A DNA stretch of 32,000 bases, taken from the NCBI GenBank assembly GCA_003144275.1, contig NJBF01000007.1:1-32000 (forward strand). The letters are read 5' to 3'. Within the stretch, counting starts at the first letter, position 1, and each line of letters begins with the position of its first letter. The translations under genes and the position numbers were made by a program. The notes under the pieces are model-generated. The model was not told where the DNA came from. It saw nothing but the letters and a program-made list of their open reading frames with translations, and made no database searches. The DNA comes from Candidatus Heimdallarchaeota archaeon B3_Heim. GTDB taxonomy: Archaea; Asgardarchaeota; Heimdallarchaeia; Hodarchaeales; Hodarchaeaceae. Positions 22,411 to 27,156 of this stretch are shown here, piece after piece.

Positions 22411-23412
22411 TTAATTATTTCCTTTATGTATTCTCTCATGATTTCCTGTAAGTTCCCGTGTTGTCCATAACAAGAAGAGCAATCCAAGGCCCACTCCAAA
22501 CCATAGAGTTGTGAAACGAATAACTAAGGTCAAAGCAACTGATTTTGTATATTTTACGTTAAGAAGATCGATAACCAGGAATTCTAACCCGCCTTCCATT
22601 AATCCTAACCCGCCTGGTAGGAATGAAATAGCACCTATAATGGAGGAAGTGGCATAAATAAACATAGCCATTTGGAAACTCATTTGTATGCCCAAGCTTT
22701 GCGCCACCAGCATAAAAGCTAAGCATTCACAGGCCCAACCTACCATTCCGAGGAGGAGTGCTCCAGTGAATACTGGTAAGCGAAAGGTGACAATGACATC
22801 TGCACGAAAATTATCAACATATCCACCTAATTTCCGCCATGGTCCAAAGATAAGAATTCGTGAAAAAAAGTGATAGAGAGGATCGAATAAAAATGTGATC
22901 ACACCAATCATTACCAGAAAAAGAATTATTAGAAGGATAAAAAGATAATCTGAACTGAAACCCATTATAATAATACCAATTATTGATAATAGTGTGACGG
23001 CCAGTAAATCTATCAATCGTTCAGAGAAAGTTGATGCAAGCCCCTTTGAAATATCTATATTACTCCTTTTTTTCAGTAGTAAAGCACGGATTGCTTCTCC
23101 AGCTTTTGCGGGAGTTATTGCCAAAGCTAAACCAGCCATAAAGACTTTGAAGTTATATAGAGGGGGAATTTCTAATTTTAAACTCCTTGTAAATAGAACC
23201 CATTTTAGAAATCTACATAGATAATTGAGAAAACTTAGGCCAAGTGCAATGAAAACTACTTCAACTGGAATCCCAGCTAAGTAGATAAGAAGTTGGTTCC
23301 GATTACTGATAAATATCAGAACTAAATAAACTCCTGCTCCCAAAATTAACCCAAATACAAAATTACGGAATGTAAAGATCTTACTATAAAAAGATTCACT
23401 CTTTAATTCCAT
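22411..23412 (-). CDS. Lysylphosphatidylglycerol-synthase TM / flippase-like membrane protein (UPF0104, AglD C-terminal-like)
   Basis: RFLKW, TPAKAGEAIR, ERLIDL, PGGLGLMEG and RFTTLW motifs; multi-TM. Confidence 0.85.
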   Translation of the reverse strand: MELKSESFYSKIFTFRNFVFGLILGAGVYLVLIFISNRNQLLIYLAGIPVEVVFIALGLSFLNYLCRFLKWVLFTRSLKLEIPPLYNFKVFMAGLALAITPAKAGEAIRALLLKKRSNIDISKGLASTFSERLIDLLAVTLLSIIGIIIMGFSSDYLFILLIILFLVMIGVITFLFDPLYHFFSRILIFGPWRKLGGYVDNFRADVIVTFRLPVFTGALLLGMVGWACECLAFMLVAQSLGIQMSFQMAMFIYATSSIIGAISFLPGGLGLMEGGLEFLVIDLLNVKYTKSVALTLVIRFTTLWFGVGLGLLFLLWTTRELTGNHERIHKGNN

Positions 23413-23419
23413 AAGCTTC

Positions 23420-23608
23420 CCGTTCTGAAAGACTTACCCAAATCGGACATTTAGGGACAATTAAGATTTTTATGTTAATGATGCTAATTATCACCAGTCG
23501 GTATTGGTGCTATTCTTCCTGCTTCCTCGACGCGTGCCTGTTGGTACACAGGTCTTACCGCCTCTCCACAGGCATTTAAGGTCTCCGCGGAACTCTCGGC
23601 GACAGGAA
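23420..23608 (-). ncRNA. Second, stand-alone copy of the tnpB 3'/right-end region (predicted omegaRNA scaffold B)
   Basis: Diverged direct repeat of 23643-23814, with a 24-bp identical end (23420-23443 = 23643-23666) and a 29-bp identical core (23575-23603 = 23781-23809). Confidence 0.6.
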
Positions 23609-23642
23609 TTATTAGGGGTTCCTTCTTTATAAAATCATCAAA

Positions 23643-23814
23643 CCGTTCTGAAAGACTTACCCAAATAAGACAGTTAAAAATAATTAGGAACAATTATTAC
23701 AAACCGTCCTTGGAGCTGTTCTTCCTGATTCATCGACGCGAGCCTGCTCAGATGCAGGTTTTACCACCTCTCCACAGGCGTTTAAGGTCTCCGCGGAACT
23801 CTCGGCGACCGGAA
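23643..23814 (-). ncRNA. Predicted TnpB omegaRNA scaffold A, overlapping the tnpB 3' end and element right end
   Basis: Known TnpB architecture places the omegaRNA over the 3' end and right end; hairpin CCTGC-N6-GCAGG at 23743-23758; ends ...TCTTTCAGAACGG. The 5' boundary is taken from the repeat limit. Confidence 0.6.
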
Positions 23815-24964
23815 ATAGTCGGAACCGATAGATAACATAATAATTGGCTACATTGCACGCAGCATTCTGATCACGATCTAATACCAACCCACATAACGGG
23901 CAATGAAAAACCCGATCAGCTAACGTTAGATCCTGCTGGTAATACAGGCAATTAGAGCATAATTTCGAGGAAGGAAACCAGCGATCGATCTCAATCAACG
24001 TAGAACCATAGAAAGGTGCCTTATATGCGAGGAAACGCTGAAACAGACCATGTGAAAGATCGGCCCAATATTTACTCAGCTTCTTATTTTGCATTAATCC
24101 TTTGACATATAAATCCTCGGTAACTATCACGCTGTGGTTTTTAGCCAGATAGGTAGAGGTTTGATGCAAAAAATTATGCCGTTGGTTTGTAATTCGACGA
24201 TAGAATTGCGCTAAGCGGAGGGCAGACTTTCGTTTATTATTTGAGCCGTTCTCTTTCCGTGAATGAGCTTTTGATAATCGACACTGTTTCCGAGCTTGAC
24301 GGAGGAGGAAATTAGGTCGTGCGATGGGGATTCCAGAAGATAAGGCGGCAAAGACGGATAATCCTTTATCCAACGCAACGAGTGGGCCACCGTTTGGTTT
24401 ACGATCCGGTTGTTCCTCTTTCACGGTAAGAGCCACAGACCAGCGATCCGCAGTCCGAGAGATCGTGGCACTCAGTATCCGTGCCGATACAGGTAAATTT
24501 GGCGTTTCTTTTAGCCGTAATTTCCCCAAACGAGGTAATTGGACCTGTTTTACCGCTGGAAAAAGGCGAACCACTCCCGTCAATCGAAAGCTGTCCTTAC
24601 ACTTGCCTTTTTTCTTGAATCTGGGCAATCCGACATAGCGGATGGTTCGGTTCTTTTTTCTTTGTTGATGATTGGTGAAGAAATTCTGATAGCCACGATC
24701 TAAGTCGCGGAGGGCCTCTTGCGGGACACATTTCGAGACCTCATACATCCAGGGAAAATCAGTGTTTTTCAAGCGATTTAATTCTTTATGTTGTTTTATA
24801 GCATCGGTATAACGAGCTGTACCTGTTTGCGTGCGATAACGTTGTTTTCGACTGGCTAATCCCCAGTTCCAGGTAAATCGTGATATACCTGCACATTTGG
24901 TCAGTAGCGTCCGTTCCTTGTTATTTACACATAATTCGTACTTATATCCTCGTGTACGGAGCAT
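23684..24964 (-). CDS. tnpB: TnpB RNA-guided endonuclease
   Basis: N-terminal HTH-type start (CAGISRFTWNWGL); RuvC acidic residues in ALDKG, TEDL and DRDQNA; zinc finger CSNC...CPLC; FPSSKLCS. Confidence 0.95.
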   Translation of the reverse strand: MLRTRGYKYELCVNNKERTLLTKCAGISRFTWNWGLASRKQRYRTQTGTARYTDAIKQHKELNRLKNTDFPWMYEVSKCVPQEALRDLDRGYQNFFTNHQQRKKNRTIRYVGLPRFKKKGKCKDSFRLTGVVRLFPAVKQVQLPRLGKLRLKETPNLPVSARILSATISRTADRWSVALTVKEEQPDRKPNGGPLVALDKGLSVFAALSSGIPIARPNFLLRQARKQCRLSKAHSRKENGSNNKRKSALRLAQFYRRITNQRHNFLHQTSTYLAKNHSVIVTEDLYVKGLMQNKKLSKYWADLSHGLFQRFLAYKAPFYGSTLIEIDRWFPSSKLCSNCLYYQQDLTLADRVFHCPLCGLVLDRDQNAACNVANYYVIYRFRLFPVAESSAETLNACGEVVKPASEQARVDESGRTAPRTVCNNCS

Positions 24965-25402
24965 CCCTGACCATCCTTACTAGCACTCACTAACATAACA
25001 TAGCAATACTGATTGATTACGCGCTTTTCTTCTTATAAACCTACGAGGCCACGTGATCTAAATCAAAATTGCTAATATTCCGTTATTTTATTGTTAAAAG
25101 GTTAATTAGGTCATCACTGGAACTATAATCTCATGAGATCTGTTTATTTCTCTATTAATTATATCTTTTAGTCTCTCCTCCCTCTTCCTAAGTTCCATTG
25201 CTTTTTGTTTCCCTTTTCCCCTTGAAATTCACTTTTCCTATTTGTCTATAAATGTCTATATTTGGCTATTATTCAATAGATAGTTTACAACCCTACATTC
25301 CAGATCAAACGGGGTTCCTTTCCCTCATTTTAGCGTTAATAGGTTAACTAGCCCATCGTTTTATCTATAATCCAATGAGACAAATTAAATCCCCAGTCAT
25401 TA

Positions 25403-25651
25403 TTATAATTCATGTTCTGTCCCCGTTTCTTTCGTTGTTCTGTATGCTGTCTTAAACTTCCTCTTCGTCCTGTGTGTCCATAAATGTCGATATCTATCCA
25501 TTGATTCGCTAGCTATTATCAACCCTTTGAGTATCACTTTTAAAATGCAGATCAATGAATCACCATCAATAACCACTAAAAAATCCCTTCTGAGTTCTAC
25601 CAGTGCATCATTTAGAAAGGATTTCTCTGACCTAGCAAATTTTTTTACCAC
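25403..25651 (-). CDS. Hypothetical small protein
   Basis: 82-aa ORF only; no motif recognised. Confidence 0.25.
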   Translation of the reverse strand: MVKKFARSEKSFLNDALVELRRDFLVVIDGDSLICILKVILKGLIIASESMDRYRHLWTHRTKRKFKTAYRTTKETGTEHEL

Positions 25652-25692: not shown

Positions 25693-26073
25693 TTGTTGCG
25701 AGAAAAAGAATGTCTTGAATGTAAACAACATTTTCCTGTACCGTCTATGATTAGAGGTGTAAAGACTAACCAATATGGGGATAAGGAAAAATATGGTTAT
25801 CTCTGCGGAAGATGTTATCGGAATAGCGTGGAAAAACGATCAAAAATCCTCCTCTTTTTCACTGTGGGTTCTGGGGTTATAGGATTTATTTTCTTTAGTC
25901 TAATCTTGTATATGTATCTATTTGTCAAAACTCTTTTAGCTGATCAGTTCATATCTACAGTAGAAACTTTTTCATCCTTGGGTATTATTTTCATTTTATT
26001 TTCTTTGGTCTTGTTTTACATGCGTCACAAAGAGTTGTCTAAAATGCGGAAGCAAATTAAAACTCTTCGTTAG
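25693..26073 (+). CDS. Hypothetical zinc-finger plus two-TM membrane protein
   Basis: CLEC...CGRC followed by two hydrophobic helices and a basic tail. Confidence 0.6.
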   Translation: MLREKECLECKQHFPVPSMIRGVKTNQYGDKEKYGYLCGRCYRNSVEKRSKILLFFTVGSGVIGFIFFSLILYMYLFVKTLLADQFISTVETFSSLGIIFILFSLVLFYMRHKELSKMRKQIKTLR

Positions 26074-26088
26074 TTTTTTATCCGTACA

Positions 26089-27156
26089 TTATGAGGAGAA
26101 ATCATTATAATTAAGAAGCTTATTCATAGTTGGATGTTCTTCAAGTTTAGTAATTATTTTCTTTATTTCGTGAGCTCTCCCCTTTTTACACACAAAAATG
26201 CAATCATTTGTATCAATTATGACCAAATCTTCAATACCCAGTCCGACGATTGGTTTTTCTCCGAATATTATACTATTTTTCACATCGACACCTAGGAAAT
26301 CTGATTGAATTATATTACCTTCATTATCTCTGTCCATGATTCTGTCTAGAGAATCCCAAGTTCCAATATCATCCCATTCAAAATCTCCTTTAACGACTAC
26401 CAGATCACTTGACTTTTCCATAATTCCATAATCTATCGAAACTTTCGATAACGGTTCAAATACTTTTTTTGCTACCTGTGGATCAAAATTTTCTTTTCGA
26501 ATTGTTTCTAATCCCTCATAAAGAGTTGGCATGAATTTTTTATAGCTCAGATATAGAAAAGAGGGTTTTACAATGAACATTCCTGAATTCCACAGATATC
26601 CAAGACGTATATACTCTCGGGCTGTAGAAGATGTGGGTTTTTCTTTGAAAGAATTCACTTCAAATGTATTTTCTGTTGTAGCAGTCAATCTATTTCCTGG
26701 TTCGATATATCCAAAGCGGGTTTCAGCTCTACGTGGTTTTATACCTATTAGTGCAATCTTATTTTGTTCAGCTAATTTGACGGCGGGGTTTATCGCAAGT
26801 TTAAATTTTGTTAAATCTGGTATAAAATAATCTGCTCCCATAAAAATGGTTACATCATTCTGATCATCATTCAATAAGTGTGAACAAGCATAACCAATGC
26901 CTGCGGCTGAATCTCGACCTAAAGGTTCGACGATTAGATTTACATCTGGCAATTGTTCTCGAATTAGCTGTTTAAGACTATCCCGCGTCGAAATATGAAT
27001 TTTTTTTGAATCAACAATCTTACAGGCATTATGATACGTCTGTTGGATCAATGAAACGCCTCTATCAAGGGAAATACATTGTTTAGGTTTGTTTTTACGT
27101 GATTTTGGCCATAAGCGTTCCCCTCCGCCTCCTGCTAATATCACAATATTGACCAT
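26089..27156 (-). CDS. manC: Mannose-1-phosphate guanylyltransferase
   Basis: ILAGGGGERLWPKSR, EPLGRDSA, ETRFGYI, FKEKP, WNSGMF, SIDYGIME and WDDIGTW motifs. Confidence 0.92.
   Translation of the reverse strand: MVNIVILAGGGGERLWPKSRKNKPKQCISLDRGVSLIQQTYHNACKIVDSKKIHISTRDSLKQLIREQLPDVNLIVEPLGRDSAAGIGYACSHLLNDDQNDVTIFMGADYFIPDLTKFKLAINPAVKLAEQNKIALIGIKPRRAETRFGYIEPGNRLTATTENTFEVNSFKEKPTSSTAREYIRLGYLWNSGMFIVKPSFLYLSYKKFMPTLYEGLETIRKENFDPQVAKKVFEPLSKVSIDYGIMEKSSDLVVVKGDFEWDDIGTWDSLDRIMDRDNEGNIIQSDFLGVDVKNSIIFGEKPIVGLGIEDLVIIDTNDCIFVCKKGRAHEIKKIITKLEEHPTMNKLLNYNDFSS

Follow-up and report, generated by a model that had tools for sequence, protein, structure and literature searches.

A tnpB element nested in a gene-less relative very probably accounts for a tandem of two omegaRNA-type modules in a heimdallarchaeal genome

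Introduction

Behind an intact tnpB gene on contig C96 of a heimdallarchaeal genome (3.95 Mb in 103 contigs, 94% complete), the structured right end of the element is found twice, in the same orientation and separated by a few dozen nucleotides. The question that this locus raises is whether a single nuclease is served here by two scaffolds and two guides, or whether the pair came about by another route. An earlier note on this DNA had favoured the first reading, a scaffold-guide-scaffold-guide cassette resembling a minimal proto-CRISPR array, and had named as the alternative a newer element inserted next to the relic of an older relative. The window, that is, the whole stretch of DNA analysed, comprises 32,000 nt of contig C96.

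From sequence comparison it is argued here that positions 23420-25522 (minus strand) very probably represent two mobile elements of a single TnpB family, one nested in the other. The inner partner is a tnpB-only element, designated element A. The outer one is a gene-less mini-element, designated PATE-B, palindrome-associated transposable elements (PATEs) being gene-less IS200/IS605 derivatives (Meers et al. 2023, PMC10055086).

The Repeated Right-End Module

On the minus strand, copy A of the module extends over positions 23643-23818 (176 nt) and copy B, 34 nt downstream, over positions 23420-23612 (193 nt); these limits were set by a covariance model and are wider than those given in the earlier note. 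The "spacer" of 34 nt between the copies occupies positions 23609-23642. Copies A and B are approximately 80% alike, with 81-83% identity in the ungapped blocks, and in a BLAST self-comparison 23420-23611 matches 23643-23817 with 74% gapped identity (E 8e-31). The terminal 24 nt, ATTTGGGTAAGTCTTTCAGAACGG, are exact in both, as is a 29-nt core that begins GTCGCCGAGAG; the remaining differences are scattered substitutions and one 17-nt insertion in copy B. The repetition of the right end, as reported earlier, is borne out by the self-match and by the exact end and core.

A common fold of seven helices was obtained from 17 aligned module copies of this genome with RNAalifold, extended by hand with one variable hairpin. 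Counted on that alignment, 96.4% of the cells are paired and both sides have changed in 7 of the 42 pairs; the covariation score was reached by none of 500 shuffles, and slid controls pair 39-50% of the cells. Helix 3 is the hairpin in which a compensatory change had been noticed before. It reads CCTGC-N6-GCAGG in copy A (23743-23758) and CCTGT-N6-ACAGG in copy B (23537-23552), with a stem exchange from C-G to U-A and four of the six loop bases differing; this change is confirmed, two independent compensatory events are seen in the helix, and covariation also holds across the 17 copies. Copy B retains all seven helices, its 17-nt insertion lying in the apical loop of helix 7, where the closing pair has changed from A-U to G-C. 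From the frequency of G-U pairs, the strand that folds is seen to be the tnpB-sense strand. The z-scores of single-sequence folds are weak (-1.8 for copy A and -1.0 for copy B), so that the structural argument rests on the alignment. As modelled, the structure fits an omegaRNA, the counts being of a kind that does not separate RNA folding from folding of the top-strand DNA. Support is thus given to the view that the locus holds two structured omegaRNA-type right-end modules, each followed by a sequence of its own in guide position.

A hit to the Rfam family RAGATH-18 at 23722-23778 (minus strand) stays below threshold (24 bits versus a gathering score of 44.9, E 0.34) and was dismissed as chance or uninformative. 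Scans for promoters and terminators returned sites no more numerous than those in shuffled sequence, and no terminator-like site lies on the minus strand between the two scaffolds. Their proximity would allow a single transcript with both scaffolds.

Element A and Its Nuclease

Element A is composed, on the minus strand, of a non-coding left end of 326 nt (24965-25290), an intact tnpB gene coding for 426 amino acids plus stop (23684-24964) and the right-end/omegaRNA-type module of copy A (23643-23818), which scores 209 bits with the covariance model R1, overlaps tnpB in its final 45 codons and has ...CAGAACGG as its terminus. The reading of the gene as tnpB draws on Pfam and NCBIfam models, on the catalytic triad and on dN/dS. 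Above cut-off, its product, TnpB-A, contains the Pfam domains HTH_OrfB_IS605 (PF12323), OrfB_IS605 (PF01385) and Cas12f1-like_TNB (PF07282), and it reaches 247 bits with the NCBIfam model guided_TnpB (cut-off 100). Alignment with ISDra2 TnpB (E 9e-47) spans the protein from one end to the other. In this alignment D199, E283 and the aspartate of the DRD motif correspond to D191, E278 and D361 of ISDra2, and both CxxC pairs of the zinc finger are present; the three RuvC acidic residues are accordingly kept, as had been stated. Six TnpB paralogs with open reading frames are found in the genome. With 79-90% amino-acid identity and pairwise dN/dS values of 0.14-0.26 among them, the nuclease is maintained under purifying selection.

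The borders of element A are sharp. When positions 23300-25500 were compared with the genome by BLAST, at least six other copies (79-91% identity) aligned, with homology that starts at 25290-25294 on the left-end side and stops at 23643. The right ends of these copies all stop at CAGAACGG and continue into unrelated DNA, and their left ends are all preceded by RGGG, with unrelated DNA before that. From these borders and flanks, element A is taken to span 1648 bp (23643-25290) and to have RGGG as the motif behind which it inserts.

As to family assignment, TnpB-A passes the general NCBIfam TnpB model and not the IS200- or IS607-specific models, and, as in the IS200/IS605 family, a fixed sequence of four or five nucleotides stands 5' of the insertion, with no duplication of the target site. 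Subterminal hairpins at the element ends were seen by eye only. A Y1 (HUH) TnpA is not represented in the 94%-complete genome by any match to PF01797, the controls being positive. An IS607-type serine-recombinase TnpA, which would have a MerR-like HTH at its N-terminus, was not found in the genome either; its one resolvase-domain gene, on contig C2, scores 28.6 bits with the IS607 transposase model (cut-off 110) and adjoins no tnpB. This gene codes for a small serine recombinase of 183 aa and is arranged tail to tail with a gene for a reverse transcriptase of the group II intron type (416 aa; G000:C2, 98-1908). No transposase to which either insertion could be ascribed was thus found; it may sit in the unassembled 6% of the genome, or it may have been lost.

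The Interrupted Mini-Element

The sequences on either side of element A, 25291-25522 and 23420-23642, make up one gene-less element of 455 bp with left and right ends, PATE-B, in which a 266-nt left end is joined to a 189-nt right-end module; all of its parts are read on the minus strand. The outer 232 nt of the left end (25291-25522) are colinear with positions 8635-8871 of contig C82 of the same genome (90%) and with the copies on G013:C174 and G004:C55; they resemble element A in its left end, and their last 5 nt (25291-25295) are TAGGG, the target/TAM motif of element A. The inner 34 nt of the left end (23609-23642) are the "spacer", which in C82, G013 and G004 follows the outer left end without a break. 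The right-end/omegaRNA-type module is copy B (23420-23612), with 179 bits in R1 and 96% identity to C82:8902-9094. The left border is marked by AAGGG (25523-25527), the target/TAM motif of PATE-B; RGGG stands before all four PATE-B copies and before every other left end of the genome, and the DNA further upstream is unrelated.

The evidence that carries this reconstruction comes from copies without the insert. In a BLAST comparison within the same genome, C82:8635-9094 was seen to join a homolog of 25528-25291 (90%) directly to a homolog of 23644-23417 (96%), which means that the "spacer" and copy B continue the sequence on the far side of element A. Uninterrupted PATE-B occurs in two other species of the genus as well (G013:C174, 90%; G004:C55, 88%), and if 23643-25290 is removed in silico, the window becomes colinear with all three uninterrupted copies, with neither gap nor duplication at the join. 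The site of element A in the PATE-B left end, TAGGG, reads TAGGG, TGGGG and TGGGG in the other three copies. Contigs of four public metagenome runs, with a likeness of 90% or more, show the halves joined, passing from 23641 to 25291/25292, and hence uninterrupted PATE-B exists as DNA elsewhere.

PATE-B aligns with the left and right ends of element A and is devoid of the approximately 1.2 kb between them; copy B still translates to a TnpB C-terminal-like peptide, a 40-aa relic with 65% identity to amino acids 383-422. Four copies are known from three genomes; RGGG stands 5' of each, and on either side the flanks differ from copy to copy. Parental ends joined without the gene, and multiple copies at unrelated sites, are what would be expected of a PATE. 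The loose contig ends at position 23420 differ between the metagenome runs, which fits mobility of PATE-B.

Insertion Site and Host Genes

Upstream of the nested elements lies a gene for a mannose-1-phosphate guanylyltransferase-like (manC-like) protein (26089-27156, minus strand; Pfam NTP_transferase and ManC_GMP_beta-helix), and downstream of them a membrane-protein gene of the LPG_synthase_TM family (22411-23412, minus strand; Pfam PF03706, E 9e-41). The gap between these genes amounts to about 30-50 bp in six other species of the genus and to 2.7 kb here; from the short gap in the relatives it follows that a conserved gene pair was split by the mobile elements. The ATG of the LPG_synthase_TM-family gene is located 8 nt past the right end of PATE-B, and the AAGGG target probably belonged to the ribosome-binding region of this gene. 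The downstream genes share the strand with tnpB and both scaffolds. With the gene pair split and the element ending 8 nt before the start codon, expression of the downstream membrane-protein and glycosyltransferase genes would probably depend on transcription out of the elements. Between the manC-like gene and PATE-B, a frame of 126 aa is present on the plus strand (25693-26073), with a weak match to DUF2207_C that stays below cut-off (E 0.002); one relative (G010) has a frame of 42% identity at the equivalent place.

Family Census and Search for Other Tandems

The covariance model R1, built from right-end modules, was run on the genome itself and on 60 related genomes. It detects 19 modules in the genome, nine at a tnpB 3' end (six with an intact gene and three cut by contig ends), nine gene-less and one cut by a contig start; R1 modules were present in 13 of the 60 related genomes. 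RGGG precedes 14 left ends. Gene-less elements with left and right end are found on contigs C54, C64 and C68, where a left end of about 260 nt is combined with a module of about 175 nt, those on C62/C24 are cut by contig ends, and C101 and C93 carry solo right-end modules. The left-end/right-end junctions differ among the gene-less copies, with at least four kinds, and all of them retain the module from GTCGCCGAGAG onward. This suggests that the whole scaffold of about 175 nt, and not just the short terminal hairpin, is needed by the mini-elements.

Copies A and B are the sole close tandem among the 19 modules. A search of relatives for multi-unit versions, as proposed in the earlier note, did not bring up any comparable tandem with R1 in the 60 related genomes or in 21 other species of the genus. 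In 22 genomes of the genus, the junction pattern TTTCAGAACGGTTTGATGA, with up to two mismatches allowed, turned up nothing but unrelated sites or right ends that are flanked differently; for the exact junction 20-mer, two public collections of metagenome and genome contigs returned 15 matches, alike over 22-23 nt and unrelated to the element. The junction was thus found neither in the genus nor in these collections.

Three candidate loci were rejected. The pair at G007:C59 (350-2448) is a full TnpB element followed by a separate mini-element 660 bp downstream. This TnpB belongs to a sister subfamily (60% amino-acid identity), and the mini-element, of about 210 bp on the same strand, has its own AAGGG, a very short left end and a module 96% identical to that of its neighbour. 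The apparent tandem at G007:C39 (1120-1520) has perfect repeats surrounding a masked stretch of N and looks like a problem of assembly or masking; the last ~130 nt of tnpB and the first part of the module are present there in three perfect repeats. A 193-nt module of G024, considered as a possible full-length parent of the B-type scaffold, has its extra length elsewhere and is therefore not that parent.

Origin of the Tandem

The arrangement would be explained by two insertions. In the first step, PATE-B would have inserted 3' of AAGGG, 8 nt upstream of the start codon of the membrane-protein gene and within the conserved manC/LPG-synthase-like gene pair. In the second, the 1648-bp tnpB-only element A would have inserted without a footprint 3' of TAGGG in the PATE-B left end, whereby its right end came to lie 34 nt upstream of the PATE-B right-end module. 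PATE-B first and element A later is the order with the fewest steps; alternatively, the composite moved as a unit and element A was later lost from the other copies, the tandem being due to nesting either way. The succession of scaffold, 34 nt, scaffold and flank would thus be a by-product of two target-specific insertions, and with element A inside the PATE-B left end, the "guide 1" of the tandem is the conserved interior of that left end.

A selected two-unit omegaRNA cassette, in which one TnpB with two scaffolds and two guides is kept for wider targeting, would agree with an intact TnpB and with two scaffolds that retain all predicted helices, run on the same strand 34 nt apart and have no terminator-like site between them. 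Yet the supposed 34-nt guide is left-end interior present in every PATE-B copy, and the remainder of the same left end is found beyond element A. Moreover, the arrangement is unique among the 19 modules and was met neither in the 60 relatives nor in the junction scan of the two public collections, and orthologous conservation is lacking, the relatives being without an insert at this locus. The cassette reading is considered very unlikely and, as far as the sequences go, already largely refuted by the uninterrupted paralogs: what had been taken for a proto-CRISPR array has the inner 34 nt of the PATE-B left end as its spacer and the right end of the same mini-element as its second unit. Of the alternative formulated at the outset, the older related element and the newer one are both present, but the newer one was inserted into the older one and not beside it.

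Two further explanations have to be weighed against the nested insertion. The residual coding capacity of copy B, with its 65% identity to amino acids 383-422 of TnpB, would be expected if it were the remnant of a full-length tnpB element that decayed in place and beside which element A inserted. This is extremely improbable: the same 455-bp structure with the same left/right junction is intact at three other loci in three genomes, from which it follows that loss of the gene predates the insertion here and that PATE-B moved as a gene-less unit; element A is situated inside the left end of PATE-B rather than beside it; and tnpB-derived sequence between 23609-23642 and the left-end half does not occur in any PATE-B copy. 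The suggestion that copy B is a tnpB decaying on the spot is therefore replaced by that of a mobile gene-less derivative. Finally, an assembler of metagenome data could have joined repeats of different loci or strains, a concern raised by the metagenome-type assembly of 103 contigs with its many 80-90% similar copies and by the contigs listed from four metagenome runs, none of which bridges the junction of the A right end and the spacer (the best run contains 0.21 of the sampled words). Such an artefact has hardly any probability, since two independent wrong joins would have had to yield an exact, footprint-free insertion 3' of RGGG, with the PATE-B halves in correct order and orientation and with junctions that share no repeat longer than a few bases.

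Guides and Element Retention

In the nested arrangement, the two omegaRNAs would carry guides of different kinds. The predicted guide of omegaRNA A, TTTGATGATTTTATAAAGAA (23623-23642, minus strand), is interior to the PATE-B left end in the uninterrupted copies, and its 20-mer represents the consensus of the PATE-B family (20/20 in G004, 19/20 in G013 and 18/20 in C82). The predicted guide of omegaRNA B, GAAGCTTATGGAATTAAAGA (23400-23419, minus strand), is host DNA and includes the downstream start codon at 23410-23412. The flank from which it derives is unique to this locus, other PATE-B copies being flanked otherwise, and no other RGGG-preceded match to it was found in the genome. With element A residing in a multi-copy mini-element, guide A thus matches a repeated sequence and not a unique site.

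Following established TnpB biology (Karvelis et al. 2021, PMC8612924; Meers et al. 2023, PMC10055086), TnpB-A together with omegaRNA A would cut the vacant site TAGGG+TTTGATGATTTT..., that is, the unoccupied left end of PATE-B. Were the PATE-B scaffold to be transcribed and then taken up in trans by one of the TnpB paralogs, the target of cleavage would be the empty host site AAGGG+GAAGCTTATGG...; transcription would probably occur by read-through, because 1.65 kb now separate the scaffold from its own left end. By either activity the elements would be retained or would home, as has been described for TnpB of the IS605 family.

In the C82 copy, which is the sole further PATE-B of this genome, the paralog of 25295-25291 plus 23642-23623 (C82:8866-8891) mismatches guide A at positions 1 and 4. 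Private substitutions of C82 number 15 in 455 columns, and two of them are these guide positions, adjoining TAGGG; the Poisson probability that two of the 15 fall within the first 6 nt of the protospacer is ~0.02 (~0.06 for a 12-nt seed), calculated post hoc. As a hint, the seed changes are suggestive of escape from self-cutting. One might go further and assume that TnpB-A cuts unoccupied RGGG copies of PATE-B, that repair templated by the occupied copy spreads element A without a transposase, that scaffold B guards the outer site and that C82 has escaped. This extended scenario is unlikely. If it were true, there would be two tiers of retention, with element A spreading via the PATE-B family. 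The genome offers a natural set for work on guide RNAs acting in trans, with six intact TnpB paralogs, nine gene-less modules and the RGGG motif, and this set includes one nuclease with a guide that matches a repeated mini-element.

Comparison with Known Systems

In its nuclease, element A resembles the ISDra2-type TnpB and the tnpB-only elements of the IS1341 type in the IS200/IS605-IS607 group, as is evident from the full-length alignment, the RuvC triad and the zinc finger. Like the reRNA of ISDra2, its module of about 176 nt overlaps the 3' end of tnpB and stops at the right border, so that the next bases occupy the guide position. Another trait in common with ISDra2-type elements is insertion behind a short, fixed motif with no duplication of the target, whereas the motif itself, TTGAT in ISDra2, is RGGG here. 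Unlike ISDra2, the present family is found in a genome in which no tnpA of either type was detected.

With type V CRISPR arrays and TranC, the locus has the superficial layout alone in common, namely a TnpB-family nuclease and two repeats with different following sequences. The known route from TnpB to type V CRISPR (TranC; Jin et al. 2025, as cited in PMC13565253) is a functional split of the omegaRNA into tracrRNA and crRNA and does not consist in doubling entire scaffolds. At the present locus, there is no sign of RNA splitting, of adaptation genes or of further units. CRISPR repeats are short, while the units here are whole scaffolds of 176-193 nt, and the "spacer" is transposon-end sequence common to all PATE-B copies. 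Neither a unique spacer originating outside the repeat-bearing element nor recurrence of multi-unit versions, as would be expected of a CRISPR array, was observed.

The closest likeness is to PATEs, which often encode omegaRNAs to be used in trans by the TnpB of other elements (PMC10055086). PATE-B and the elements on C54, C64 and C68 are likewise gene-less and multi-copy, with distinct flanks and a complete omegaRNA-type module. In contrast to the PATEs described, this copy of PATE-B was itself the target of a full-length relative, and a nuclease gene is now contained in the mini-element. To the known PATEs with trans-used omegaRNAs, one more such member would thus be added, with a full-length relative nested in it. 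A proto-CRISPR-like layout can therefore arise trivially, by nested target-specific insertion, and it is advisable to look for paralogous empty sites before calling such a layout an evolutionary intermediate.
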